A stretch of 12,099 bases of DNA from a virus, in the IMG/VR virus record IMGVR_UViG_3300045988_023686, positions 1-12,099 of that record; one strand, 5' to 3'. Numbering within the stretch: position 1 is the first letter of the stretch; each line of letters opens with the position of its first letter. Positions 1-12,099 of the stretch are shown here, piece by piece. A program made the position numbers and the translations under genes. Under the pieces are notes generated by a model, which saw only the letters and a program-made list of their open reading frames with translations, was not told where the DNA came from and made no database searches.

Positions 1-22
1 AAAAGGTACACAAGGCACCCCA

Positions 23-61
23 TTTTAACATTTCCCAACAGGTTTTTAACATTTGCTAACA
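23..61. repeat. Direct repeat inside the ITR (two 18-nt copies, 21-nt register)
   Basis: TTTTAACATTTCCCAACA (23-40) and TTTTAACATTTGCTAACA (44-61) share 16 of 18 positions and are offset by 21 nt, about two helical turns. The pair is mirrored in the right ITR. Confidence 0.8.
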
Positions 62-103
62 CACTTTGGCACGCTTTTTGTTGCCGTGCCACAAGTACCA
101 CAA

Positions 104-148
104 TTAACAAGTATTAACACATTTAACACACCGTTAACACAGTTAATT
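104..148. repeat. Iteron-like array of TTAACA(C) units inside the ITR
   Basis: TTAACA starts at 104, 114, 123 and 134, and TTAATT at 143, giving spacings of 10, 9, 11 and 9 nt. Further TTAACA copies start at 25, 46, 211, 234, 244 and 313. The array is mirrored at about 11952-11996 in the right ITR. Confidence 0.7.
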
Positions 149-161
149 TTTCACAAAAGAA

Positions 162-204
162 ATGTTTCACGTGGAACAGTAAGAGCAGATGTTTCATGTG
201 AAAC
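162..204. promoter_or_regulatory. Two copies of the palindromic motif ATGTTTCA-NN-TG(G/A)AAC (candidate operator)
   Basis: ATGTTTCACGTGGAAC lies at 162-177 and ATGTTTCATGTGAAAC at 189-204. The arms GTTTCA and TGAAAC are inverted repeats around a 2-nt centre. Copy 1 lies in the ITR and recurs at 11923-11938. Copy 2 straddles the ITR boundary and is absent from the right end. Confidence 0.35.
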
Positions 205-256
205 AAAGTGTTAACAACTATTAAATTAATTCTTTAACACTATTTAACAAAAATAA

Positions 257-288
257 TTTGGTGGATTTGCAAATTTGACGTATCTTTG
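257..288 (+). promoter_or_regulatory. Left-end promoter, Bacteroidota sigma-A type (-33 TTTG, -7 TAnnTTTG)
   Basis: TTTG at 257-260, a 20-nt spacer, then TATCTTTG at 281-288. The identical 10-mer TATCTTTGCA with the same 20-nt spacing occurs at 5060-5069 and, on the minus strand, at 11822-11831. It sits about 50 nt upstream of the first plus-strand ATG (337). Confidence 0.6.
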
Positions 289-336
289 CACCGTATTTTA
301 GAAACAATAAGTTTAACAATTTAAATTAGGTAAATT

Positions 337-504
337 ATGAACGAAAATTTTAATGAAATTATTTTTAACTGTGTTACAAGTGTTAACGCTTTGATGACTT
401 CTAACGAAGTAGCAAAAGATGACAAGGCGGTTATTAAGTTGAACCGCTTTAAGAAGTGGTTGAACGAATTCGCAGCAGCCAACGGTGTAACAGAAGTAAA
501 GTAA
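337..504 (+). CDS. Small hypothetical protein (55 aa), first gene of the left operon
   Basis: I translated this ORF by hand: ATG 337, TAA 502-504, MNENFNEIIFNCVTSVNALMTSNEVAKDDKAVIKLNRFKKWLNEFAAANGVTEVK. It falls below the length cutoff of the supplied ORF track. It is co-oriented with the downstream genes and directly follows the promoter. The listed antisense ORF 313..522 is probably its shadow. Confidence 0.5.
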   Translation: MNENFNEIIFNCVTSVNALMTSNEVAKDDKAVIKLNRFKKWLNEFAAANGVTEVK

Positions 505-548
505 CACCCCTACAGGTAACAAGAAGTTTAACGTTAAATATTTAAGTT

Positions 549-914
549 ATGGTTAAAGGTTTTAGTTTTGCAAGTAAGTTCAACAAAACAAGTTTCGGTA
601 TTGATACAACAGATTTTCCGTTTGTAAAGTTGACAGACATCTACAACAGTAAAAAGGACGGTGGCGATGATGTGGTGCACCCGATTAACGGTTTGTACGT
701 TCACAAATCCCCTTTGGGTGATTCGCCTGTAATTATTGACGCAGAAAACAAACGCTTGGTAAATTTGCCACAATTCACAGGCGACACAATTCGTGAAATT
801 TTGGCGGATAGTGAGGCGGTCGAAGCTATCAAGGCTAACAAGGTAGGTTACACAATTTATGAATACGATTCTCATGCGAAGAAGTGTTATGGTATTACCT
901 TTGTAGATAAGTAG
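549..914 (+). CDS. Hypothetical early protein (121 aa); speculative ssDNA/dsDNA-binding replication accessory protein
   Basis: The ORF is co-oriented, lies upstream of the terminal-protein candidate and polymerase, and is followed by a strong hairpin terminator. Its size and position resemble phi29 p5 and p6. I recognised no sequence motif. Confidence 0.75.
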   Translation: MVKGFSFASKFNKTSFGIDTTDFPFVKLTDIYNSKKDGGDDVVHPINGLYVHKSPLGDSPVIIDAENKRLVNLPQFTGDTIREILADSEAVEAIKANKVGYTIYEYDSHAKKCYGITFVDK

Positions 915-943
915 CGCAGTGTAGTGTAAAGGGTGATAATTTC

Positions 944-985
944 ACAGGGGTAACAGTATTTTTATTGTTATCCCTGTTTTTGTTT
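944..985 (+). terminator. Intrinsic terminator or attenuator within the left operon
   Basis: ACAGGGGTAACA (944-955) pairs with TGTTATCCCTGT (966-977) as a 12-bp stem containing one G-U pair. A 10-nt loop separates the arms, and TTTTTGTTT follows. Confidence 0.6.
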
Positions 986-1005
986 CATTTTAAATTAACA
1001 ATGTT

Positions 1006-1635
1006 ATGGCAAACAAAAATCCTATAGGCTTCAGTGGTCGAACATTTAAGGCAACGAAAAAAGCGCATGTAAAAAAAGAAATAATAAACGCCATTGAAAG
1101 TAGTAGCAGTTTACGAAAAGAAATTGCTAAAGTATTTCAACAGGCAAACAGACGTATACAGAATATAGAGAAAAATGGTGTTGTTTCTCCCGCAGTTGTT
1201 GCGTTAAATAAAGGTGATGTAAAAGGATATTCTAAATTTTCAATGAAACATGAATGGAGCGATTTAAAAATAGAATATTCAAAGGCTATAGCATTTTTGC
1301 AGCAGCCAACCTCAACCGCAACAGGTACGAATGAATACGCAAAACATTTAAAGAAAACTTATAAGTTATCAGATGATGAGTTTTCTTTAATGCAAGAAAA
1401 GTTAATAGGTAAGATTGCTAGCGTATCAGATCAAAAATTTTTGGAACAATACCTTATGCAATATAAAGACTTTACAGGCGAACTTGAACAGGACGCAAGG
1501 GACGTATCAGACCAAATCGAAAGTGACGCTATAAAAATAGCAGATAACTTACAAAATAGTATTGATAACGTTGGCGAAAAAGTCGAAGAAACAGTACAAA
1601 AAATATTGGATAGTTTTAAAGATTTCGGTTTATAA
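1006..1635 (+). CDS. Candidate terminal protein (replication primer), 209 aa
   Basis: It lies immediately upstream of the protein-primed polymerase, and its stop overlaps the polymerase start (TAATG at 1633-1637). The N-terminus is basic (KATKKAHVKKE) and the C-terminal third is strongly acidic and Ser-rich (ELEQDARDVSDQIESD...EKVEETVQ). This charge layout matches that of the phi29 terminal protein. The assignment rests on synteny and composition only. Confidence 0.5.
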   Translation: MANKNPIGFSGRTFKATKKAHVKKEIINAIESSSSLRKEIAKVFQQANRRIQNIEKNGVVSPAVVALNKGDVKGYSKFSMKHEWSDLKIEYSKAIAFLQQPTSTATGTNEYAKHLKKTYKLSDDEFSLMQEKLIGKIASVSDQKFLEQYLMQYKDFTGELEQDARDVSDQIESDAIKIADNLQNSIDNVGEKVEETVQKILDSFKDFGL

Positions 1636-3842
1636 TGAAAAAGATACCCTTTGAACTACATGCAGAAGTTTACACCCCAAAAGATATTGCAAAGGTTTTA
1701 TCTTTGGCGGTTAACGAAAAGAATTTTACAGGCAATAATAAGGGCGAAAAGTTCCTTAATGTGCCTGTGTCTTTCGATATTGAAACTACATCTTTCTATA
1801 GGGACGCAGACGGTGAAACATACAGTTATGACCGATATATAAAATTAGGCGGTAAAGACACAAAAATGGAAAAGTGTTCTTTAATGTATGTTTGGCAATT
1901 TGGAATAAACGGTTTTTGCATAATAGGTCGAACTTGGGACGAATTTATTAAAATGTTGTCTGAGATAGTAACTTTGCTAGATTTAAACCAAAAAAGACGT
2001 GTTATTATTTACGTTCACAATTTGGCTTATGAGTTTCAATTTATCCGTGAATTGTTACAATGGGAAAAAGTTTTCTCTATAGATTTACGCAAACCGATTT
2101 ACGGAATAACTAAAGACGGTTTAGAGTTTAGATGTAGTTACCTGTTATCGGGTTATTCGTTGGCAAAGTTGGGAGAACAGTTACACACTTACAAGTGTGA
2201 GAAATTAGTTGGCGATTTAGACTACAGTCTATTGCGTCACAGTCAAACACCGTTAACGCAAAAAGAAATTGGTTACTGTTTGAACGATATAAAAGTAGTT
2301 ATGTGTTATGTACAGGAATTAATAGAACGTTACAAGGGAATAACGAAATTACCTTTGACAAAAACAGGTTTTGTTCGTAAATATTGTCGTTCTGTATGCT
2401 TCAAGACAACTGACGAAACAGGCAAGACAACACCAAACTTTAAGTATTTCGATAAAATACACGATTTAAATATAACAGGTATCGAAGAATTTGAAATGTT
2501 GCAACGTGCTTTCTCGGGCGGCTTTACTCATGCAAATGCAAAGTATACTGACGAAGTTATGGAAAACGTAGATAGTTACGACTTTACAAGTAGTTACCCG
2601 TATGTTATGGTATCAGAAAAGTTTCCGATGAGCACAGGGGTTTTTGTTCCTGTTAAATCTATAAAACAGTTTGAATTTATGACTAACAAATTTTGTTGTG
2701 TCTTTGATATTGAGATAACAAACATTTTTGCTAAATCAGAAAACGAAAACCCCATATCGGTAAGTAAGTGTTTCGTGAAAGAAAATGTTTCTGAAAATAA
2801 CGGTCGTTTGGTTTGCGCTAGTAAAATATGTATGACTATAACAGAAATAGACTTTAAAGTCTTTTCGCAGTTTTATTCTTGGGAGCGTATACGAATAGGC
2901 AAAATGATTTGTTACAGAAAAGAGTATTTGCCGACTGAATTTGTGAAATCAATTTTGCACCTGTATGAAATGAAAACCAAACTAAAGGGTGTAAAGGGAA
3001 AAGAAGTTGAATACTTGAATAGCAAAGAAATGCTAAACAGTTGTTACGGTATGAGCGTCACAAACCCTTTGCGTGATGAGATTTTATGTGACGGTGAAAA
3101 TTGGGACGTGGAACACCTAACAGGCGAAAAACAGTTAGAAATGTTAAGCAAATACAACGACAGTAGAAACAGATTTCTTTTTTACCCTTGGGGTATTTAT
3201 GTAACGGCTTATGCAAGACGGAACCTATTTACAGGTATTTCAGAATGTGGGGACGACTATATATATAGTGATACCGATAGCGTTAAGATAATGAACGGTG
3301 ACGCACACAAAGAGTATTTCAAGCTATACAATGATTTAGCGCAACAGAAATTACGTGCTGCATGTAAGTTTCATAAAATACCCTTTGAAAAGGTTGAACC
3401 TGTAACGATAAAAGGAATAGCAAAACCGCTTGGTGTTTGGGATTATGAGGGACGATACAGACGTTTCAAAACTTTAGGCGCTAAAAGATACATGGTAGAA
3501 GAAGAAAATGCCCTTACTGTTAACGGTAAAAATTATGATTACAGTATGACAGTTTCGGGTGTTAACAAAAAATCTGCTATACCCTACATGTTAGAAACTT
3601 TCGGGGAAAAAGGTATCTTTGACGCTTTTACCAATTACTTAGACATACCGCCAACGGCAACAGGTAAGAATATTCATACATATATAGATTATGAGCAGAC
3701 AGGTACAATAAAAGACTATAAAGGGGTTATTTCAAGTTACGACACAGTAACAGGGGTACACTTAGAACCAACAGGTTATACACTTAGTCTTTCAGTACTT
3801 TATATAAATTATTTAATGGGAATAAGATTAAAAAAGGAATAA
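1635..3842 (+). CDS. Protein-primed family-B DNA polymerase (phi29 gp2-like), 735 aa
   Basis: All signature motifs are present and in order:
- Exo I: FDIETT (D48, E50; nt 1776).
- Exo II: YVHNLAYEFQF.
- Exo III: YCLNDIKV.
- Motif A: DFTSSYPYVM.
- Motif B: KEMLNSCYG.
- Motif C: YSDTDS (nt 3264-3281).
- KxY: GAKRYM.
Long stretches align with phi29 DNAP as I remember it, for example RAFSGGFT and PWGIYVTAYAR. Confidence 0.95.
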   Translation: MKKIPFELHAEVYTPKDIAKVLSLAVNEKNFTGNNKGEKFLNVPVSFDIETTSFYRDADGETYSYDRYIKLGGKDTKMEKCSLMYVWQFGINGFCIIGRTWDEFIKMLSEIVTLLDLNQKRRVIIYVHNLAYEFQFIRELLQWEKVFSIDLRKPIYGITKDGLEFRCSYLLSGYSLAKLGEQLHTYKCEKLVGDLDYSLLRHSQTPLTQKEIGYCLNDIKVVMCYVQELIERYKGITKLPLTKTGFVRKYCRSVCFKTTDETGKTTPNFKYFDKIHDLNITGIEEFEMLQRAFSGGFTHANAKYTDEVMENVDSYDFTSSYPYVMVSEKFPMSTGVFVPVKSIKQFEFMTNKFCCVFDIEITNIFAKSENENPISVSKCFVKENVSENNGRLVCASKICMTITEIDFKVFSQFYSWERIRIGKMICYRKEYLPTEFVKSILHLYEMKTKLKGVKGKEVEYLNSKEMLNSCYGMSVTNPLRDEILCDGENWDVEHLTGEKQLEMLSKYNDSRNRFLFYPWGIYVTAYARRNLFTGISECGDDYIYSDTDSVKIMNGDAHKEYFKLYNDLAQQKLRAACKFHKIPFEKVEPVTIKGIAKPLGVWDYEGRYRRFKTLGAKRYMVEEENALTVNGKNYDYSMTVSGVNKKSAIPYMLETFGEKGIFDAFTNYLDIPPTATGKNIHTYIDYEQTGTIKDYKGVISSYDTVTGVHLEPTGYTLSLSVLYINYLMGIRLKKE

Positions 3843-3843
3843 T

Positions 3844-4980
3844 ATGAAACAGAAAAAAGAAAAAGTGGAAACACCTAAATTTTACAGTTTAAGCCGCATT
3901 TTATCAAAAAATGCAGATTACAACGTGATTTTCGGTGAACGTTCAAACGGTAAAACTTATGCAACGTTACTGTATGGTATTAAAGAATATTTGCGCACAG
4001 GAAAACAAATGGCATATATTAGACGTTGGCGAGAAGATTTAAGGGGAAAACGTGCCGAAAGTTTATTTGCAAATCATGTGGCAAACGGTGTAATACAGGA
4101 ACTAACAGACGGTAAGTTTAACGAAGTGTTTTACGTTTCGGGTAAATGGTTTCTTTCGTCTTATGACCCCGAAACAAAGAAACGTGTACCCGATAACACA
4201 CCGTTTTGTTTCGGTTTCTGTTTATCAGAACAGGAACACGAAAAGTCAAGCAGTTACCCGAATATAACTACAGTTGTATTTGATGAGTTTTTAACTAGAA
4301 GATATTATTTGCCTGACGAATTCATGTTATATATGAACCTGTTAAGTACAATTATCAGACAGAGAAACGATGTTAAAGTTTTTATGTTAGGTAACACCGT
4401 TAATCAGTTTTGCCCTTATTTTACCGAAATGGGGTTGAAACAAGTGCGAGTGATGGAACAGGGAACTATTGATATTTACCGTTTCGGTGAGTACGGTGCT
4501 ACTGTTGCAGTAGAATATTGTAGTACTATTGTCAGGCATAAAGCTAGTAACAAATATTTCTGTTTCGATAATGAGAATTTGCAGATGATTACAGGCGGTA
4601 AATGGGAACTAGCAGCATATCCGCATTTGCCTGTAAAATACAAACCAAACGATGTGTTGTTTGTCTTCTATATTCAGTTTAACGAAATGACCCTACAGGG
4701 TAACGTGATACAGGTTGAGGACAAAACAGGGGTAAACAATTTTATATATATCCACAACAAAACAACACCGATTAAAGATACAGATAATAGTTTGATTTAT
4801 TCGCTGCAAATGAACGGCAAACCGAATTATAAAAGAAAGTTACTAAGTAACGCAAGTTATGTGGAGCAGCAAATAACAAAGTATTTCGCCACCGATAAGG
4901 TATTTTATCAGAATAACGAAATAGGTGAAATTGTGCGTAACTATTTAATGGCGAGTGCACGCAGTAACATAATTACTTAA
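3844..4980 (+). CDS. DNA packaging (encapsidation) ATPase, phi29 gp16-like, 378 aa
   Basis: Walker A is GERSNGKT (nt 3934-3957) and Walker B is TTVVFDEF (D147, E148; nt 4282-4287). The N-terminal block YNVIFGERSNGKTYA...GKQMAYIRRWREDL parallels phi29 gp16 FVIGARGIGKSYA...GEQFIYVRRYKPEL, as recalled from memory. Confidence 0.9.
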   Translation: MKQKKEKVETPKFYSLSRILSKNADYNVIFGERSNGKTYATLLYGIKEYLRTGKQMAYIRRWREDLRGKRAESLFANHVANGVIQELTDGKFNEVFYVSGKWFLSSYDPETKKRVPDNTPFCFGFCLSEQEHEKSSSYPNITTVVFDEFLTRRYYLPDEFMLYMNLLSTIIRQRNDVKVFMLGNTVNQFCPYFTEMGLKQVRVMEQGTIDIYRFGEYGATVAVEYCSTIVRHKASNKYFCFDNENLQMITGGKWELAAYPHLPVKYKPNDVLFVFYIQFNEMTLQGNVIQVEDKTGVNNFIYIHNKTTPIKDTDNSLIYSLQMNGKPNYKRKLLSNASYVEQQITKYFATDKVFYQNNEIGEIVRNYLMASARSNIIT

Positions 4981-4988
4981 TATCTGTT

Positions 4989-5045
4989 AACAGGGGTTAA
5001 AAATGTTTCACATGAAATAATTTTCCCCTGTTTTATTTGTTTTTA
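4989..5045 (+). terminator. Terminator of the left operon (long hairpin plus T-tract)
   Basis: AACAGGGG (4989-4996) pairs with CCCCTGTT (5025-5032). The 28-nt interior is itself largely self-complementary and contains the third copy of the palindrome. TTTTATTTGTTTTT follows the stem. Confidence 0.6.
5003..5018. promoter_or_regulatory. Third copy of the palindromic motif (ATGTTTCACATGAAAT)
   Basis: It has the same ATGTTTCA-NN-TGAAA core as 162-177 and 189-204. It is located 18 nt upstream of the -33 element of the late promoter. Confidence 0.35.
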
Positions 5046-5067
5046 CCAAATAAAAAAACTATCTTTG
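5036..5067 (+). promoter_or_regulatory. Late/structural operon promoter, Bacteroidota sigma-A type
   Basis: TTTG at 5036-5039, a 20-nt spacer, then TATCTTTG at 5060-5067, followed by CA as at the two terminal promoters. It lies about 30 nt upstream of ATG 5100. Confidence 0.6.
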
Positions 5068-5099
5068 CAGCATTAAATAACAAAGTTAAAATTTGCTAT

Positions 5100-5294
5100 A
5101 TGGACGTAAACGAAATTGCATCATTAATAAGTAACGTTGGTTTTCCTGTTACGGTTTGTATCGCCCTGTTTTTCTATATGGAAAAGCAGAACGAAAGACA
5201 TCAAAACGAAACCGACAAGTTAAACGAAACAGTACAAAGTAACACGAAAGTGTTAACAGAACTTTGTACCTTAATTAAAACACTAATTAAGTAA
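5100..5294 (+). CDS. Small membrane protein, YvrJ-like (64 aa); holin candidate
   Basis: I chose ATG 5100 instead of the track's TTG 5037, which would place the promoter inside the ORF. The protein has one N-terminal hydrophobic helix (ISNVGFPVTVCIALFFYM) followed by a charged coiled-coil-like tail. The LISNVGFP...Y pattern resembles the YvrJ family (PF12841), as recalled from memory. I saw no comparable transmembrane segment in any other protein in this window. Confidence 0.7.
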   Translation: MDVNEIASLISNVGFPVTVCIALFFYMEKQNERHQNETDKLNETVQSNTKVLTELCTLIKTLIK

Positions 5295-6344
5295 ATGAAA
5301 AAAGAAAACTTATATAACAGGTATCAAACAGAAGTTAAAGACAAAGATTCTGCATTATTTACATTTATGCAACGTATTCTTTGCATGACTTCTAAAATGT
5401 TTGAATACACAGGAACACCCGAAACTGTTCCACCTGTTGAACTTGAAAAGATTCTGCAAACATCGGGAAACGTTGGTATCGCAGAAGTTGACGGTAATTT
5501 GTATGCCTTACAGGGTTCAAGGGGTGGCGAGTGTGACGCTTACGGTTACGGAAAAGATTATGTTGTCGCAAATCCTTGGTTACAGTTGAACAAAACCTAT
5601 AAAATCGGTTCTGATATTGTAGTTATAAACAACACACCGTTTGCGGATTCGCTTTTGCCGATTATCGGAAAATATGGTGTTCTTTACACAGACGCAACAA
5701 TAACGCTTAATTTAGCTAGCATTTTAACACGTATTACAATGTTAATCTCTGCTAGCGATGACAAGACCAAACAGAGCGCAGAATTGTTTTTGCAGAAAAT
5801 TTTGAACGGTGATTTTTCTGTAATCGGTGAAAATGCCTTTTTCAAAGGTGTAAACTTACAGACCCCACCGACACAGGGAAACCAACAAATCGGGCAATTA
5901 ATTGAACTGTTGCAGTACTACAAAGCTAGCATGTTTAATGATTTGGGTTTGAATGCTAACTATAACATGAAACGTGAGCGGTTGAACACGCAAGAAGTTT
6001 CAATGAATATAGACGCTTTAATGCCTTTCGTGGATTCAATGCTAAAAGAACGTGTTGAGGGTGTGAAACGTGTTAACGAAATGTTCGGTACAGATATTAC
6101 GGTAACTTTGGGTTCAAGTTGGAAAATTGAACACGAAAATTATTTGTCGTTACTTCAAGCAACAGAAGACGGACACGACCACACCGAAACAGAAGACGTT
6201 CATCCTGTAACGGAAAACGAAACAGAAGAAACGCAAGAAACAGAAGAAACGGAAACAGAAACAGAAGAAACAGAAGAAACGGAAACGGAAACGCAAGAAA
6301 CAGAAGAAACAGAAGAAAAAGAAAACAAAGATGAGAATAAATGA
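5295..6344 (+). CDS. Portal / head-tail connector protein (phi29 gp10-like), 349 aa, with acidic E/T-repeat C-terminus
   Basis: Three blocks parallel phi29 gp10 as I remember it:
- MFEYTGTPETVPPVELEKILQTSGNVG vs [27 protein letters not shown].
- NMKRERLNTQEVSMN vs NLEKKERMVTDEVSSN.
- VNEMFGTDITVTL vs INELYGLNVKVKF. Confidence 0.85.
   Translation: MKKENLYNRYQTEVKDKDSALFTFMQRILCMTSKMFEYTGTPETVPPVELEKILQTSGNVGIAEVDGNLYALQGSRGGECDAYGYGKDYVVANPWLQLNKTYKIGSDIVVINNTPFADSLLPIIGKYGVLYTDATITLNLASILTRITMLISASDDKTKQSAELFLQKILNGDFSVIGENAFFKGVNLQTPPTQGNQQIGQLIELLQYYKASMFNDLGLNANYNMKRERLNTQEVSMNIDALMPFVDSMLKERVEGVKRVNEMFGTDITVTLGSSWKIEHENYLSLLQATEDGHDHTETEDVHPVTENETEETQETEETETETEETEETETETQETEETEEKENKDENK
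6186..6320 (+). repeat. In-frame imperfect tandem repeat (GAA ACR / GAA GAA ACR units) encoding the E/T-rich portal tail
   Basis: Reiterated gaaacagaagaaacg / gaaacggaaacg units translate to TETEDVHPVTENETEETQETEETETETEETEETETETQETEETEEKE. The complementary strand yields the F/C-rich artefact ORF 6150..6497. Confidence 0.9.
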
Positions 6345-6900
6345 ATTGTTCACAACTGAAAATGGGTTATTTGAAAAAATCTTTAAACCCCTGTTTCCTG
6401 TTTTGTACGATTCAATATTTGGGACAGATGACCCAAAAATAATTGATATTGATTTTCGTTTTAAATATGGGGACAGAACTTTTGTTAATGCTATCACAAA
6501 TGAAACTGTAAATGATATTGTAAAAAGTATTATTACAGTAAAGTTTGACGAATGGCAAAAACAGATTCAAGTGTTTAATAAAGAATATGACGTGTTAAGT
6601 CCTGTAACAGAAAAGACAACTGAAACGGTAAATAACACCGTGGACGAAACAGGGAATAACAATACAGTCGATTCAAGTGTAACGTTTAATAATGGAGATT
6701 TCGGAAATGACACAAAGCAACAAAGAGACTCTACAGGGAACAGACAAGAAACGGGTACGAAAACAGTTGTTAAAAACAGTTTGTCGGGTGGTTTTCCTGT
6801 TAGTGAAATTATTCAAAAAGAAATGAGTTTGCGCAAAACTAATTTCAAGATGCAAGTGATAGCAGAACTTGCGAAAGAGTTAACAGTAGATATTTATTAA
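6331..6900 (+). CDS. Hypothetical structural-module protein (189 aa); possible scaffolding protein
   Basis: The ORF overlaps the portal stop by 14 nt and lies between the portal and major capsid genes. It has an N/T/D-rich, low-complexity centre (TETVNNTVDETGNNNTVDSSVTFNNGDFGNDTKQQRDSTGNRQETG) and a predicted helical C-terminus. The function is inferred from position only. Confidence 0.7.
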   Translation: MRINELFTTENGLFEKIFKPLFPVLYDSIFGTDDPKIIDIDFRFKYGDRTFVNAITNETVNDIVKSIITVKFDEWQKQIQVFNKEYDVLSPVTEKTTETVNNTVDETGNNNTVDSSVTFNNGDFGNDTKQQRDSTGNRQETGTKTVVKNSLSGGFPVSEIIQKEMSLRKTNFKMQVIAELAKELTVDIY

Positions 6901-6920
6901 TTACTTAAATTTTTATAAAA

Positions 6921-8105
6921 ATGAATGTAAAACAGATTTATAGTTTAGTTAACACCGTATCGGGTGAGGTTTTGGGTAATACCGAGTTGGTACACGAAGA
7001 CCTTACAGGTTTAGTCGATTTGGGTAACGAAGTATTCAACCAAAACCAAGTTGACAATTATGTTAAATCACTTGTAAACCATATCGGTAAAGTGGTATTC
7101 GTAAACCGCCCTTATTCGGGTAAAGTTCCGAGTGTGCTTATGGACGCTTGGGAATTCGGTTCTGTATTGGAGAAAATCTCTGCTGATGTGCCCGATGCAG
7201 AAGAAAATGATACCTGGAACTTACAGGACGGTAAAGAGTACAAACAGGACGTTTTCTACAAACCGACTGTTTCCGCTAAGTTCTTTAACTCAAAGGTAAC
7301 TTTTGAGGTTCCTGTATCTATCACAGAAAGACAGGTAAAAGAAAGTTTCAGCAGCGCAGAACAAATGAACGGTTTTCTGTCAATGATTTACTCAGCAGTT
7401 GACAAGTCGATGACTATCAAGACAGATGCGCTCATTATGCGCACAATTAACAACATGATAGCTGAGACATTGGACGCAGACAAAACCGCTTTCGGTTTCG
7501 TACCGTCAACACACGAAACAGTTGACTATTCAACTGCTAGTACTGTTCGATGCGTTAACCTGTTGAAACTTTACAACGATAAGACAGGTGCTCATTTGAC
7601 CGCAGCCGCAGCGATAACAACACCCGACTTTATCCGTTTTGCGGCTTATGTTATGGGTTTGTATTCAGACCGTTTGCAGACAATTTCAACCCTGTTTAAC
7701 ATTGGCGGTAAGGAGCGATTCACACCGAAAGACGTTTTGCACACAGTTCTGTTGTCTGATTTCGCAGCCGCAGCAAAAGCATACCTGTATGCCGACACGT
7801 TCAATAGCGAGAATGTTCTGTTGCCACAGGCTGAGACAGTTGCAAGTTGGCAAGCAACAGGCAAAAATTATGCCTTTGAAAACACGTCAAAAATTGACGT
7901 AAAGAGTGCGAGCGGGGCAAACGTTTCTGTAAGCGGGGTGTTGGGTGTTATGTTTGACCGTGACGCTTTAGGTGTAACAAACCTTGATAAGCGTGTGACA
8001 ACCAACTACAACGCAAAAGCAGAGTTTTTCAACAACTATTACAAGTTTGATGCCGGTTACTTTAACGACACAAACGAAAACTTTGTTGTGTTCTTTGTTG
8101 CCTAA
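6921..8105 (+). CDS. Major capsid protein (phi29 gp8-like, HK97 fold), 394 aa
   Basis: Three blocks parallel phi29 gp8 as I remember it:
- DNYVKSLVNHIGKVVFV vs NDFITSLVDRIGLVVI.
- FLSMIYSAVDKSMTIKTDALIMRTINN vs [27 protein letters not shown].
- GVMFDRDALG vs AVLVDKDWF.
It is the largest non-tail structural ORF and is followed by a strong terminator. Confidence 0.8.
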   Translation: MNVKQIYSLVNTVSGEVLGNTELVHEDLTGLVDLGNEVFNQNQVDNYVKSLVNHIGKVVFVNRPYSGKVPSVLMDAWEFGSVLEKISADVPDAEENDTWNLQDGKEYKQDVFYKPTVSAKFFNSKVTFEVPVSITERQVKESFSSAEQMNGFLSMIYSAVDKSMTIKTDALIMRTINNMIAETLDADKTAFGFVPSTHETVDYSTASTVRCVNLLKLYNDKTGAHLTAAAAITTPDFIRFAAYVMGLYSDRLQTISTLFNIGGKERFTPKDVLHTVLLSDFAAAAKAYLYADTFNSENVLLPQAETVASWQATGKNYAFENTSKIDVKSASGANVSVSGVLGVMFDRDALGVTNLDKRVTTNYNAKAEFFNNYYKFDAGYFNDTNENFVVFFVA

Positions 8106-8136
8106 GTTTTGTTGTTTAATTGTTTAACTTTTGGTG

Positions 8137-8190
8137 AGGGTGCGTTTCCTGTAGTTGATAGCACAGGGCGCACCCTTTTAAAATTTTTGT
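8137..8190 (+). terminator. Intrinsic terminator after the capsid gene (probably leaky)
   Basis: AGGGTGCG (8137-8144) pairs with CGCACCCT (8169-8176), and an inner CCTGT/ACAGG helix extends the structure. TTTTAAAATTTTTG follows. I see no TAnnTTTG element before the next gene, so the tail genes would need read-through. Confidence 0.6.
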
Positions 8191-8193
8191 GGT

Positions 8194-8631
8194 ATGCTGA
8201 TAAAAACTTATAATTATAACGGTGAACCTAACAGGGTTAATAAGACGCTACAGGAAAACGAAGAATACACAGGTGTGCTAAATTCAACTGTAAACATATT
8301 AGAACCTGTTATCCGTTTCCGTACAACTAATATAGTAACGTTTAATTACGTTTATATAGAAAGTTTGAACCGTTACTATTTCGTTTCTGAGATACGACAA
8401 GACGGTGATATTTGCACGGTTTATTTGCGTACGGACGTTTTAATGACGTACAAAGATAAAATATTAGATTCTATAGGTACGTTAACAAAGGGTGCAAATG
8501 TAAATAAGTATGCGTCAAACCGTGAAAACGCTTACGATTTGCGCCCGAAACTGAAAAAGCTAGATTTCCCTAATAAAGGGTTATTTAGTGATAAAGATAA
8601 CATTATAATGGTAACTATTAAAGGTAATTAG
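8194..8631 (+). CDS. Tail protein, homologous to the N-terminal domain of the phi29 gp9 tail knob (145 aa)
   Basis: FNYVYIESLNRYYFVSEIRQDGDICTVYLRTDVLMTY parallels gp9 [41 protein letters not shown], as recalled from memory. The ORF ends at TAG 8629-8631, 2 nt before the next ORF. Confidence 0.7.
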   Translation: MLIKTYNYNGEPNRVNKTLQENEEYTGVLNSTVNILEPVIRFRTTNIVTFNYVYIESLNRYYFVSEIRQDGDICTVYLRTDVLMTYKDKILDSIGTLTKGANVNKYASNRENAYDLRPKLKKLDFPNKGLFSDKDNIIMVTIKGN

Positions 8632-8633
8632 TT

Positions 8634-10484
8634 ATGAGTATAGCAATTAAGGAATTTAACCTTTATGGTGCAAAGGCTAATTTTAAAACAAAGGGTTATG
8701 ACGTTATTTGTACTTTTACTCTGAATGCAAATACCGTTTGGAACGGTGAACCGTTTACACTTGAATTTAAAGATAATGACAGCCACTTTCACAATAAAAC
8801 CGTAAATGTTGAAACTGTAAAAGATAGCACGGAAACAATAATAGAAACGGTAAAAAATTACAATTATGCAAGCATGAGTGTTTCTGTTATCGGTTATTCT
8901 ACAACATACAATGGGGAACAGATAGTTATTGGTAATTTGGTAAACAATGTGCCACACAGTACGTTGGAACAAATGTACACAGGTGTAAATAGTGATGACG
9001 GAAAAAATGCGTGGACTAAAATAACATTAAAAGCTGATGACGGTTTTAAATTTGTTGAGGGGACATTAAAAAATGATAGTAATGTTGGGTTCAATTATTC
9101 TCACAATAATACAGTAGCACAACAATATGTTGGAACACCTTTAAATAACTTAAATATAGGGTTGATATTCACAGGTGAAACAGTAGCAAAGGAAACTGAG
9201 ATAATAAATAATATTACAGGTAATTGTGAGGAAACACACACCGTGGACGGTACAAACGTTTCTATAACTGTTACAGGTTATAGCGATTATGCAAAGTTTG
9301 TTGGGGTGTCTGTTGAGTATACCGATATTAACGGTGAACCGAAAACGTTTGTGCCCGATTTTTCGGAAAACGTTATAAATATATCATTAACTGATGTAAA
9401 ACCGGGCACAACGGTTACTTTGTCGGGTGCTTACCGTCTTGTTTGCACAACCGTTAATAATATGACAGGGTGCAACGTAACAGGGTTAAAACCTTATTAC
9501 ATCGAAAACGAAACTGTTAACGTTATCGCAACGGCAAATGGTAAAACTCATTTTGACGCTGAGAATTTACCTGTTGCTAATTGGGAACCGTTAACAGGTG
9601 GAGCAGAACAACACCCTTTTGTTCTGAGTAACAACGGTAAAACCGCAACATTAAATTTTACGTTTCCAAACGACAGAGAAAAAGTAAGTGATTCAACTTT
9701 TACCCTGTTAGGTGGAACAGTCCCCGATACAGAAGTAACAGGTTATGGTAGTATTAACGTTTATCTAGTAGACACAAAAACTTTAGATGATTTCTCAAAA
9801 ATTCGTTTCACTAAAAAGTTAAATGAAAATTACGAATATGAATATTATGATATTGGGAAATATGTGAACAGGTTACACAAAGTTTACGTGGACGTACCGA
9901 ATGTTTCCCCAACGTCTTTAAAGTTGGCTAACTTTGATACAAGTATTAATACAAATAGCGTTGACGATTCAAAGGTACACGTAGATTTCGGAAACGTGCT
10001 ATTACCTGTTAATTCTGATAGTGGAAACGATTTTAACGCTACTATACAATGTTTCATACCGTTTGTCGGTTTTGTACCTGTAGATAGTGATTTTATCGGA
10101 AAAGAACTAAATTTATGTTACGATATAGATTTAATTACAGGTTATTGTGCCTATAATTTATCATGTGACGGTATTACTATTAATAACGGTACGGCAAATT
10201 GTATCAGCGAAATTATTTATAAAACGTTGGCTAATGATGAGATAAGTACTATAGGGGATTTAAGCGATTTCAATACGGTTTTAATGGGGTTAGAACCTTA
10301 TATTACTATCAAGTACTTTGAACCGTTGAATGTTCCTGTAAATAACACCACCGAACAAAAACGTATTGGGGACGTTACAGGGTTTGCACAGTTTGAAAAC
10401 GTTAACTTGTCAACAAATAACACGATGTTAGTTGACGAATTTAATGAAATTGTTTCACAACTTGGAAACGGTGTTTATCTATAA
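8634..10484 (+). CDS. Tail knob / receptor-binding tail protein (616 aa): beta-rich N-terminal part plus gp9-like C-terminal part
   Basis: The C-terminal part parallels phi29 gp9 as I remember it: IPFVGFVPVDSDFIGKELNLCYDIDLITGYCAYNL vs [24 protein letters not shown]...VAYSV, and LVDEFNEIVSQLGNGVYL vs NDLQEIRTIFDNGITLW. The first 400 aa or so look like reiterated beta-sandwich modules, for example NVSITVTGYSDY...TTVTLSGAY and NVTGLKPYY...TLNFTFPND. Confidence 0.7.
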   Translation: MSIAIKEFNLYGAKANFKTKGYDVICTFTLNANTVWNGEPFTLEFKDNDSHFHNKTVNVETVKDSTETIIETVKNYNYASMSVSVIGYSTTYNGEQIVIGNLVNNVPHSTLEQMYTGVNSDDGKNAWTKITLKADDGFKFVEGTLKNDSNVGFNYSHNNTVAQQYVGTPLNNLNIGLIFTGETVAKETEIINNITGNCEETHTVDGTNVSITVTGYSDYAKFVGVSVEYTDINGEPKTFVPDFSENVINISLTDVKPGTTVTLSGAYRLVCTTVNNMTGCNVTGLKPYYIENETVNVIATANGKTHFDAENLPVANWEPLTGGAEQHPFVLSNNGKTATLNFTFPNDREKVSDSTFTLLGGTVPDTEVTGYGSINVYLVDTKTLDDFSKIRFTKKLNENYEYEYYDIGKYVNRLHKVYVDVPNVSPTSLKLANFDTSINTNSVDDSKVHVDFGNVLLPVNSDSGNDFNATIQCFIPFVGFVPVDSDFIGKELNLCYDIDLITGYCAYNLSCDGITINNGTANCISEIIYKTLANDEISTIGDLSDFNTVLMGLEPYITIKYFEPLNVPVNNTTEQKRIGDVTGFAQFENVNLSTNNTMLVDEFNEIVSQLGNGVYL

Positions 10485-10489
10485 ATAAA

Positions 10490-10522
10490 ACAGGCGGTAA
10501 AGTTGTTACCGCCTGTTTTTTT
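10490..10522. terminator. Bidirectional intrinsic terminator between the convergent operons
   Basis: ACAGGCGGTAA (10490-10500) pairs perfectly with TTACCGCCTGT (10506-10516) around a 5-nt loop. It is flanked by an A-run upstream (ATAAATAAAA) and a T-run downstream (TTTTTTTATTTTTT). Confidence 0.8.
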
Positions 10523-10769
10523 ATTTTTTATTAGAAAATTCATAAGCTAAACCTTTGCTACAAATAAAATCTAAAGCGCGGTTTTTCTTTGCCGTTTCTT
10601 CATCAAGTTTGCAAGAAATAGTTTTTATTACTAAGGTTTGCGCCTTTAATACCCCAATAACAGAATTTAATAACATGCCGTTTGTGCCTGTTGTTTCTTC
10701 TGCTATATTCTGCAAATTTTCTGTTGAAACTTTAATTGACTTCAACAAAATTTCTATTGTTTTTTCCAT
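10521..10769 (-). CDS. Hypothetical protein (82 aa), last gene of the right-end operon
   Basis: The ORF is co-oriented with the endolysin gene and starts 2 nt after its stop. I recognised no motif and no clear transmembrane segment. Confidence 0.6.
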   Translation of the reverse strand: MEKTIEILLKSIKVSTENLQNIAEETTGTNGMLLNSVIGVLKAQTLVIKTISCKLDEETAKKNRALDFICSKGLAYEFSNKK

Positions 10770-10771
10770 AA

Positions 10772-11194
10772 CTATTTCTTTTCTAGATTCATTATAACTT
10801 GTTGTCTTGGTTTACCGTTACGGTTACAGACCGAAACATGAAACCAAAAAGACGCAGACCCTTTACGGTGTTCTTTAATAAATTGGTCAAAACCGCCTGT
10901 TTCTCTTAGAACCTTTTCTAAGGTATTCATATCACTACAAACAACGTCAGCAGCTAAACCCTTTAAGTGTTGACTATTAGCCACACCACCAACGGCTTTA
11001 TTTAACACAGGACAACGGAAACCGCTATTAACTAAGATAGGTTTACCCAACTTTTCACGAATTTCGTCTAAGTAATCCGCTAAATGATTCAAGTTGTCAA
11101 CTACCTCAAAGGTAGGGGTGTTATCAATACCCAAACGTTTTGCGGTAGCTGAGTTAATGAACTCGGACAATGTAAAATACTTAATTCTTTTCAT
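10772..11194 (-). CDS. Endolysin, zinc peptidase of the M15 (LAS) family, Peptidase_M15_3-like, 140 aa
   Basis: The family core is SGFRCPVLNKAVGGVANSQHLKGLAADV, with H76-x6-D83 and a distal H119 (FWFHVS) as the zinc triad. The typical N-terminal FTLSEF motif is present. I see no signal peptide. Confidence 0.85.
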   Translation of the reverse strand: MKRIKYFTLSEFINSATAKRLGIDNTPTFEVVDNLNHLADYLDEIREKLGKPILVNSGFRCPVLNKAVGGVANSQHLKGLAADVVCSDMNTLEKVLRETGGFDQFIKEHRKGSASFWFHVSVCNRNGKPRQQVIMNLEKK

Positions 11195-11201
11195 ATCATT
11201 A

Positions 11202-11396
11202 TTATTTAGTTGAAATTACAAACCACTTTCTACTATCTTTGTGTGTCGGAAAACGACCCTTAACAGTTATTGAACAATCGCCCTGTAAGTAGTCGATTTT
11301 GTTGTTAAAGAATTCGCTTACCTTGTCAGAACGTACCATAAAAACCGTTTCTTTGTCGGTTTGTTTTAATGTGATTCTAAAATATGAATGTTCCAT
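11202..11396 (-). CDS. Hypothetical protein (64 aa)
   Basis: The ORF sits in series with its neighbours on the minus strand. I recognised no motif. Confidence 0.55.
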   Translation of the reverse strand: MEHSYFRITLKQTDKETVFMVRSDKVSEFFNNKIDYLQGDCSITVKGRFPTHKDSRKWFVISTK

Positions 11397-11412
11397 ATAT
11401 CAATTATTTTAA

Positions 11413-11438
11413 GCCTGTAAGGTGTTACCCTCACAGGC
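11413..11438 (-). terminator. Minus-strand hairpin between the 110-aa and 64-aa genes (weak attenuator candidate)
   Basis: The minus-strand RNA GCCUGUGAGG-GUAACA-CCUUACAGGC forms a 10-bp stem. Its one G-U pair is an A/C mismatch on the other strand, so the structure is strand-specific. Only a weak U-rich tract (UUAAAAUAAUU) follows. Confidence 0.3.
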
Positions 11439-11446
11439 GGTTAAAC

Positions 11447-11779
11447 TTATAAGATGTGTTCTGTTGTCTGTGTCAACTGTAAGAAAGAACTTGCGTCTTT
11501 TCCCAACTTGTTGCAAATCTGTGTAACGCAGCAGCCGAATTCGTTTATATATTGCAAACTATCTTTTGACTGATAACATGTGTATACGTCCTTTGTTAAC
11601 TTTGGTAAGGTGTTGTGCTTAATGCAGTTTACTTCATGCTGATACATAACCTTTGCCGCATCTTCAAAAGAAGAAACATCTGTTACTGTTTGCGTGCTTT
11701 GTGTTACTTCACTTTTAACACGTTTACCGTTAACTGATAAAACGGTTTCACACTCTAAAGTAATTTTATATGTTGCCAT
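11447..11779 (-). CDS. Hypothetical Cys-rich protein (110 aa), first gene of the right-end operon
   Basis: It is the first ATG after the right-end promoter. It contains six Cys, including the cluster GCCVTQIC. I recognised no family. Confidence 0.65.
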   Translation of the reverse strand: MATYKITLECETVLSVNGKRVKSEVTQSTQTVTDVSSFEDAAKVMYQHEVNCIKHNTLPKLTKDVYTCYQSKDSLQYINEFGCCVTQICNKLGKDASSFLQLTQTTEHIL

Positions 11780-11823
11780 ATTCTTGTATTTTAAAGGGTT
11801 TAACTAAATTTCTAAATCTGTTG

Positions 11824-11855
11824 CAAAGATACGCATTTTCCACGAAACCACCAAA
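11824..11855 (-). promoter_or_regulatory. Right-end promoter, Bacteroidota sigma-A type, facing inward
   Basis: On the minus strand: TTTG (complement of 11852-11855), a 20-nt spacer, then TATCTTTG (complement of 11824-11831), followed by CA. This is the mirror image of the left-end promoter. It lies about 45 nt upstream of ATG 11779. Confidence 0.6.
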
Positions 11856-11905
11856 TTATTTTTGTTAAATAATGTAAAAGTTTTAATTTAATTCTTTTTA
11901 ACAAT

Positions 11906-12099
11906 AAACATCTGCTCTTACTGTTCCACGTGAAACATTTCTTTTGTGAAAAATTAACTGTGTTAACGGTGTGTTAAATGTGTTAATACTTGTTAATTGT
12001 GGTACTTGTGGCACGGCAACAAAAAGCGTGCCAAAGTGTGTTAGCAAATGTTAAAAACCTGTTGGGAAATGTTAAAATGGGGTGCCTTGTGTACCTTTT
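11906..12099. repeat. Right inverted terminal repeat (genome terminus)
   Basis: Exact reverse complement of nt 1-194. The window ends precisely at the end of the repeat (...CCTTTT-3'). Confidence 0.97.

Follow-up and report, generated by a model that had tools for sequence, protein, structure and literature searches.

Phages related to Bacillus phage phi29 that infect Gram-negative hosts form, in a 2024 review of phi29-like phages, a single cluster ("cluster 23") with genomes of 11–14 kb, which is described as having a terminal protein, a small lower collar and a tail knob divided between two genes, and as lacking fibers and spikes. Isolated podophages of 11–12 kb include the Salmonella phages astrithr, Astrid, and assan (11.6–11.7 kb), the Acinetobacter phage Phanie (11.9 kb), the Pectobacterium phage DU_PP_III (11.5 kb), the Enterobacter phage Entb_47, and the Vibrio phage K58 g2, to which we refer together as Astrithrvirus-like phages. 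Here we compare with them the IMG/VR record IMGVR_UViG_3300045988_023686 (positions 1 to 12,099; hereafter "the window", meaning the whole 12,099-nt stretch of DNA that was analyzed). We consider it likely that the window holds the whole genome of a phi29-like podophage, as yet uncultured and probably virulent, of the lineage that includes Astrithrvirus, with a Bacteroidota gut host as the most likely one.

Searched by megablast against GenBank phages, the whole window gave no match. At the protein level, identity to the isolated 11–12 kb podophages is 56–59% for the major capsid protein (MCP), 51–53% for the packaging ATPase, 41–46% for the DNA polymerase (PolB), and 39–46% for the connector, and a Shigella phage was matched as well. 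Eight consecutive genes are colinear with those of Phanie, astrithr, DU_PP_III, Entb_47, and Vibrio phage K58 g2. The genes for replication, packaging, and the virion are as follows:

1006–1635, + strand: terminal-protein candidate, 209 aa, by position and synteny; its stop overlaps the PolB start.
1635–3842, + strand: protein-primed family B DNA polymerase, 735 aa (PF03175, E = 4e-16; phrog_1907, E = 4e-70).
3844–4980, + strand: gp16-type packaging ATPase, 378 aa (PF05894, E = 1e-22), Walker A and B located.
5100–5294, + strand: holin-like protein with one transmembrane segment (phrog_4898, E = 6e-9).
5295–6344, + strand: connector (portal) of the gp10 type, 349 aa (PF05352, E = 9e-15).
6331–6900, + strand: 189-aa structural candidate, by synteny with the Astrithrvirus-like phages, between connector and MCP.
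6921–8105, + strand: MCP of the phi29 type, 394 aa (PF25622, E = 2e-52).
8194–8631, + strand: 145-aa protein, predicted N-part of a split tail knob (gp9-like tube domain), by profile matches.
8634–10484, + strand: 616-aa large tail protein, structural homolog of an Astrid protein (AlphaFold2 (AF2) model, pLDDT 86.7).

The PolB motifs Exo I–III, A, B, C, and KxY were all located, and the gp16 ATPase, connector, and phi29-type MCP matches all exceed the gathering scores of their families. An earlier note on this DNA, made from the letters alone (hereafter the sequence-only reading), had named a PolB, a gp16-like ATPase, a portal, a capsid protein, and an endolysin, and all five have family matches above curated thresholds. 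It had counted about 14 open reading frames (ORFs); we find 15 between the inverted terminal repeats (ITRs), while its estimate of roughly five structural genes agrees with our candidates (connector, 189-aa protein, MCP, 145-aa protein, and 616-aa protein). IMG/VR holds 351 stretches with a closely related MCP, and 80 of these loci, 79–98% identical, were fetched and combined with the window into one contig set. Counts for relatives given below refer to these 80. Each of the 15 ORFs is kept in 33–80 of them, so that none is a chance ORF. A tRNA scan of the window found none.

The ends of the window are its other defining feature:

1–194, + strand: left ITR, perfect, with the terminus 5'-AAAAGGTACAC.
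11906–12099, − strand: right ITR, perfect, from self-comparison of the window.

Positions 11906–12099 are the exact reverse complement of 1–194, the first mismatch falling at 195, and the window boundaries coincide exactly with the outer edges of the repeat; further inward, gapped similarity with an 11-nt indel reaches to about position 300. The linear genome thus has the ITR and the terminal base reiteration (AAAA terminus) that mark phi29-like protein-primed podophages, with four terminal A in the window and a mode of three in the clade. Among the 162 contig ends of the set, 47 start directly with (A)nGGTACAC, mostly AAAGGTACAC. At 18 further ends, from independent assemblies, an Illumina TruSeq adapter (...GTGACTGGAGTTCAGACGTGTGCTCTTCCGATCT) is joined straight to AAAGGTACAC, and because adapter ligation requires an end, the DNA molecule ended there. 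The terminal motif has no internal copy in any of the 81 sequences, which disfavors circles and concatemers, and no end-to-end junction was found. The contig termini are the physical DNA ends of the genomes of this clade, and the description of the window as a complete, ITR-bounded linear genome holds, on the perfect 194-bp repeat, the adapter–terminus fusions in relatives, and the missing junction. In size, 75 of the relatives fall within 11.4–13.1 kb and the other five are shorter, truncated assemblies; most have ITRs. As a side observation, untrimmed TruSeq adapter persists in several uncultivated viral genomes of IMG/VR, which is a database contamination, yet useful evidence of ends.

The terminal regions also hold a motif array:

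25–249, + strand: array of nine co-oriented TTAACA motifs, with a tenth copy at 313–318, mirrored at 11863–12075.

Genome-wide there are 52 copies of TTAACA against 27 ± 5 expected, ten of them co-oriented in the first 320 nt and some spaced by about 10 nt (104, 114, 123, and 134). The array may be a binding site for an origin protein or a DNA-binding protein.

In gene arrangement the window matches the Astrithrvirus-like phages, sharing with them a genome of 11–12 kb, ITRs (171 bp in Phanie, 219 bp as annotated in DU_PP_III), the order terminal-protein candidate, PolB, ATPase, small holin-like gene, connector, ~185-aa protein, MCP, ~145-aa protein, and large tail protein, small leftward genes at the right end, and no fiber or spike genes. 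The size range of 11–14 kb, common gene order, split tail knob, and related MCP of that group were all found. In Phanie, astrithr, and K58 g2, the endolysin gene comes after the tail gene and shares its strand, whereas the M15 peptidase of the window is a right-arm gene of the opposite strand. The window terminus begins AAAGG... whereas theirs begins GGG..., the window has parS sites and Bacteroidota-type promoters that set it apart from them, and the likely host phylum differs.

By the practice of the International Committee on Taxonomy of Viruses, species are separated at 95% and genera at 70% nucleotide intergenomic similarity. Similarity of the window to astrithr, Phanie, DU_PP_III, Entb_47, and K58 g2 is just 5–9% (average nucleotide identity, ANI, times aligned fraction = 0.05–0.09), which leaves it outside the genus Astrithrvirus. 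Its closest relative among those fetched, IMGVR_UViG_3300045988_045032, has 93.5% ANI over 98% of the window (product 0.92), and about 15 of the 80 contigs exceed 0.70. Compared with the closest uncultured relatives, divergence is greatest in the terminal-protein candidate and in the N-part of the 616-aa protein. At 90% identity, PolB falls into a cluster of 4,681 members, and JGI, Logan, and ENA list proteins identical to those of the window on a contig of 12,099 bp. The termini, parS sites, and promoters of the window recur in phi29-like genomes from uncultured gut phages in IMG/VR, ENA, Logan, and NCBI (named "MAG: Bacteriophage sp." or "Podoviridae sp. ct..."). Judged by these sequence comparisons, the window represents a new species within a genus-level cluster that is abundant, uncultured, and distinct from Astrithrvirus. 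Rarity and novelty of such a genome are not supported by the comparison: the minimal phi29-like podovirus architecture is already known, smaller isolates with equal gene order exist, relatives are very common, and at 12.1 kb the window is neither the smallest nor new in architecture.

With phi29 itself (Salasmaviridae) the window shares the protein-primed PolB, gp16 ATPase, gp10 connector, phi29-type MCP, a terminus starting with AAAG, convergent transcription with a bidirectional terminator, and an identical parS 16-mer, TGTTTCACGTGGAACA. Unlike phi29, it has a genome of 12.1 kb rather than 19.3 kb and an ITR of 194 bp rather than 6 bp; it has no detectable packaging RNA (pRNA), gp12 appendage, gp13, gp8.5 head fiber, gp7-like scaffold, or homologs of gp4 and gp6; its knob is split over two genes; it has no Spo0A boxes; and its parS sites fall between genes and at the edges of the ITRs, whereas those of phi29 lie inside genes.

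We infer protein priming, sliding-back initiation, the tail architecture, and autonomy. The 209-aa terminal-protein candidate would prime PolB at both ITR ends, with sliding-back initiation on a 3'-TTT(T) template given by the terminal A-run. A left operon would carry the early and replication genes and the ATPase, a middle operon the holin and all structural genes, and a leftward right operon the small ORFs and the endolysin, the operons closing at two hairpin terminators. In packaging, the gp16-type ATPase would drive unit-length DNA through the gp10-type connector into a phi29-type capsid. The short tail would be built from the 189-aa lower-collar candidate, the 145-aa tube-like N-part, and the 616-aa protein, whose immunoglobulin (Ig)-like array probably replaces the gp12 appendages in host recognition. 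Lysis would be brought about by the holin and a single-domain M15 endolysin.

For the tail, the profile of the 145-aa family matches the N-terminal region of the tail knobs of phages C1 (4eo2, E = 4e-5) and Andhra (8egs, E = 7e-4), the family aligns with residues 91–130 of phi29 gp9 (hhalign E = 6e-4), and three members match PHROG 2248, "tail protein". On these profile matches, we assign the 145-aa protein as the N-part of a split tail knob. The tail knob of the sequence-only reading appears real, though probably spread over two genes rather than one. The gene of the 616-aa protein is the most variable of the clade (median identity 37%, vs. ~90% for the MCP). Its family comprises 526 representatives at 50% clustering, with lengths of 291–1030 aa owing to a variable N-part; profile matches usually start near residue 275 and invariant residues lie within 371–613. 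In the AF2 model the N-part (~365 aa) is all-beta, consisting of tandem beta-sandwiches, with Ig and fibronectin type III (FnIII) arrays as its PDB matches, and the closest viral structures are the 568-aa protein of Astrid (E = 1e-24) and proteins of gut "Podoviridae sp.". A search of the family profile against PDB sequences gave nothing significant. In the 2024 review, modeling assigns the Astrid and Phanie homologs as the C-part of the tail knob. We consider the modeled Ig-like array of the N-part likely to be the adhesin or specificity part, and the conserved C-module (the last ~250–340 aa) likely, by analogy, to be the distal part of the knob.

For the 189-aa protein, encoded between the connector and the MCP, a small lower collar and a scaffold were considered. 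Its family has a weak hhalign match to residues 87–164 of phi29 gp11 (E = 0.013), a PDB profile search gave nothing significant, a PHROG scan of all members was uninformative, and hhalign against phi29 gp7 was not significant. An AF2 model (pLDDT 43) was discarded, the supplied homologs all being at least 77% identical. No homolog of gp12, gp13, or gp8.5 was found among the 15 ORFs, which leave no spare coding space. The sequence-only reading had recognized no lower collar, appendage or tail fiber, or head fiber; this stands for gp12 and gp8.5, whereas the 189-aa protein is a candidate for a small lower collar. Its remark that fewer or diverged parts would have to make up the virion is reasonable, though in the Astrithrvirus-like group this had been recognized before. 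The connector, whose reading frame runs past the start codon of the 189-aa protein, ends in an acidic Glu/Thr-rich tandem-repeat tail (TEETQETEETETETEETEE..., encoded at 6209–6333), the length of which differs among relatives.

The 209-aa terminal-protein candidate is 22–33% identical to the equivalent gene product of the Astrithrvirus-like phages, for which the 2024 review uses the name terminal protein. Profile and hhalign comparisons showed no similarity to phi29 gp3, and neither PDB profiles nor a PHROG scan of all family members returned a terminal-protein match or an informative family. The terminal-protein candidate of the earlier note is thus identified by its place directly upstream of PolB and its homology to the Astrithrvirus-like gene, and not by likeness to gp3. 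A PTSTATG motif occupies residues 100–107, with T102, S103, and G107 invariant in the clade and in the Astrithrvirus-like homologs; this is a candidate for the loop bearing the priming residue.

Four parS-like palindromes occur in the window:

163–205, strand not applicable: two parS-like palindromes, TGTTTCACGTGGAACA at 163–178 and TGTTTCATGTGAAACA at 190–205, each 15/16 to the consensus.
5004–5019, strand not applicable: parS-like site in the loop of the mid-genome terminator, TGTTTCACATGAAATA, 14/16 to the consensus.
11922–11937, strand not applicable: parS site in the right ITR, TGTTCCACGTGAAACA, 16/16 to the consensus.

Scored as 16-bp palindromes against the bacterial consensus TGTTNCACGTGAAACA, these four compare with 0.01 expected in the shuffled window. 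Such sites are present in 79 of the 80 clade genomes (mean 4.5) in three fixed position classes, along the inner edges of the ITRs and in the middle of the genome, a short way ahead of each promoter, and the position weight matrix of the clade equals the consensus. In phi29, four copies are identical to the first site of the window (at 10445, 15903, 17243, and 18760), and the literature describes five parS sites in that phage, through which Spo0J acts in segregating the phage genome into the prespore. None of five Astrithrvirus-like isolates, three of which infect Enterobacterales, has parS sites, and Enterobacteriaceae are reported to have no chromosomal par genes. In a mouse-gut model consortium, 12 of 12 bacteria, including Bacteroides caecimuris, carry ParABS homologs and canonical parS. 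By analogy with phi29, the conserved sites suggest hijacking of the host ParB. No Spo0A boxes were found in the window, and the 2024 review of phi29-like phages makes no mention of parS. Perfect or near-perfect parS palindromes were also seen in the human-gut phage sequence MT836125.1 (10978–10993 and 12024–12039) and in Clostridium phage HM2 (10528–10543), and the parS trait may be wider in small protein-primed podophages than in Bacillus phages.

Transcription signals divide the window into three predicted operons:

257–288, + strand: left promoter candidate, TTTG-N20-TATCTTTG, Bacteroidota type, before the first gene.
944–977, + strand: hairpin with T-run, candidate internal terminator or attenuator before the replication genes (−21.4 kcal/mol, z = −7.5).
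4989–5032, + strand: hairpin terminator closing the early operon, with a parS site in its loop (−17.2 kcal/mol, z = −3.9).
5036–5067, + strand: middle (late) promoter candidate, TTTG-N20-TATCTTTG, Bacteroidota type, before the holin and structural block.
10487–10519, both strands: bidirectional terminator between the convergent operons (z = −6.0 on +, −7.8 on −).
11824–11855, − strand: right promoter candidate, Bacteroidota type, before the right-arm genes.

The three-operon map follows from the three promoter candidates and the strong hairpins. The primary sigma factor of Bacteroidota, sigma-ABfr, has been described to recognize TAnnTTTG at −7 and TTTG near −33, in a phylum without classical −10/−35 promoters. 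The pattern TTTG-N20-TAnnTTTG occurs exactly three times in the window, against 0.4 ± 0.7 expected; all three have the −7 box TATCTTTGCA and a spacing of exactly 20 nt, and on sequence they fit the sigma-ABfr consensus. They are kept in 71–76 of the relatives (clade mean 3.6 per genome, at equal positions), whereas in relatives with Proteobacteria or Firmicutes hosts there is at most one such site, in a position unrelated to these. A scan for sigma-70 promoters in the window showed no enrichment (37 vs. 40 expected). Together, the parS sites and the three Bacteroidota-type promoters point to a Bacteroidota host, to which we give somewhat better than even odds on these sequence signals; a host from some other group has a lesser chance, and Melainabacteria a slightly smaller one still.

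The remaining ORFs are small genes at the left end and the genes of the right arm:

337–504, + strand: 55-aa early ORF, kept in 79/80 relatives, no family match.
549–914, + strand: 121-aa early ORF, kept in 79/80 relatives, no family match.
10521–10769, − strand: 82-aa ORF, kept in 60/80 relatives.
10772–11194, − strand: single-domain Peptidase_M15_3 endolysin, 140 aa (PF08291, E = 1e-22).
11202–11396, − strand: 64-aa ORF, kept in 73/80 relatives.
11447–11779, − strand: 110-aa ORF, first gene of the right arm, kept in 33/80 relatives.

By its position, the 121-aa ORF is a candidate for a DNA-binding or single-stranded DNA-binding (SSB)-type replication accessory protein. Comparison of the small proteins with phi29 gp1, gp4, gp5, gp6, gp16.7, and gp17 and with the small proteins of Astrithrvirus gave a single weak match, that of the 110-aa ORF to astrithr gp15, which occupies the equal position (hhalign E = 0.002). 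The holin ORF is open from 5037; its likely start is the ATG at 5100, and gene callers give a 64-aa product in relatives. The endolysins of isolated phages closest to that of the window belong to phages of Bacteroides (46–51% identity), Achromobacter, and other Gram-negative hosts. The lysis module appears to have been swapped, the clade having an M15 peptidase in the leftward right-arm operon where Phanie and astrithr have a forward endolysin after the tail gene; these differently annotated endolysins lie directly 3' of the tail gene (Phanie 10350–10964, + strand, amidase; astrithr 9644–10099, + strand).

Several points weigh against the window being an autonomous phi29-like phage of Bacteroidota, and they bear in part on other explanations. 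The 209-aa ORF is a candidate terminal protein by its position, its Astrithrvirus-like homology, and the literature, and the 189-aa protein is a candidate for a small lower collar, which is favored over a scaffold. The C-module of the 616-aa protein gave hhalign E values of 0.17–0.38 against phi29 gp9, which was also outside the top 50 structural matches. No match above noise to any Rfam family, pRNA included, was obtained in the window, where a divergent pRNA is possible; the 2024 review confines known or predicted pRNA to phi29 and its relatives among the Bacillus phages. The two closest relatives binned in metagenome-assembled genomes (MAGs), QHMG01000022.1 and CAAGHI010000088.1, are whole phage genomes inside two GTDB species-representative MAGs from Melainabacteria/Gastranaerophilales, a bin name that we take to stand for a low-GC bin. 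These binned contigs bear the Bacteroidota-type promoters, for which reason we downgraded the Melainabacteria lead, and MAGs from a wide range of phyla contain more distant relatives; the binning is probably a composition artifact or bin contamination. Further, two ENA contigs of 16.8 and 15.2 kb, both MEGAHIT assemblies, have genes of cellular type attached at the phage's left end (ERZ27313372 k141_124282, positions 1–1335, and ERZ27306154 k141_107719, positions 1–1457), with GNAT acetyltransferases in the flank of one and an FtsX-domain gene in that of the other. Formally, this is the continuation into host DNA that the sequence-only reading had named as fatal to a complete linear genome, and it would be expected if the window were a fragment of an integrated prophage or mobile element. 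The flanks are one-sided, not conserved, and made of unrelated genes, the junctions differ and lie inside the ITR at about nt 9 and nt 97, and both contigs retain the right ITR at their end. With no integrase in the family scans, the narrow size range of the relatives, and the adapter–terminus fusions also speaking against integration, we regard that explanation as highly improbable; after the junction analysis the prophage reading of the two contigs was dropped, and they are probably chimeric assemblies.

Autonomy, too, is not to be assumed. As recounted in the 2024 review, Phanie can infect only after attaching itself to a helper myophage's tail (Pourcel et al., 2024), and such dependence is suggested to extend possibly to further phages of the group. 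The window equals Phanie in gene order and in its reduced complement of tail genes, and fiber, spike, and tail-lysin genes are absent from the family scans of its ORFs; the phage might thus be infectious only when docked on the contractile tail of an unrelated myophage, with the Ig array of the 616-aa protein serving for docking and not for receptor binding. We think this unlikely: the Salmonella phages of the Astrithrvirus-like group were isolated by ordinary plating, one preprint terms Astrid a non-satellite, and hypervariability of the 616-aa N-part is equally expected of a protein that binds the receptor directly. Somewhat less doubtful, though still tentative, is a persistent linear episome or carrier state that would add to the lytic cycle without integration, maintained by analogy with phi29 through the parS sites and the host ParB with SMC or ParA. 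The excess and fixed positions of the sites across the clade, the Spo0J–parS precedent of spore entrapment, the ParABS systems of all 12 consortium bacteria, and the absence of parS from the five Astrithrvirus-like isolates are in its favor, whereas the window has no Spo0A boxes, its family scans show no repressor, ParA, or ParB gene, and a palindrome upstream of each promoter could equally be an operator for a phage regulator. A combined version, in which a parS-bearing clade of gut Bacteroidota keeps genomes capped by terminal proteins and partitioned by ParB in a non-integrative carrier state, perhaps using a helper tail as well, has a somewhat smaller chance again. A probably virulent, autonomous phage with a complete linear genome is thus the reading we prefer.

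The finding of a minimal podophage matters little in itself, as reduced-tail phages of ~11–12 kb are already available as isolates, have a place in the classification, and have been covered by a review, and public catalogs list near relatives by the thousands. The parts worth following are the parS sites and the Bacteroidota-type promoters. The adapter–terminus fusions are a read-free proof of the physical genome ends of the clade, and the three-operon map with phylum-specific promoters permits a testable assignment to Bacteroidota hosts for a clade that has been binned elsewhere. If this assignment is true, these phages would be among the smallest tailed phages of a dominant gut phylum, and an attractive minimal system for tail assembly and for host recognition by Ig-like arrays. 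The conservation of parS suggests that hijacking of ParB by phi29-like phages goes beyond the spore-entrapment case of Bacillus, and, if the carrier state were true, the Spo0J–parS strategy of phi29 would extend to non-sporulating Gram-negative hosts.

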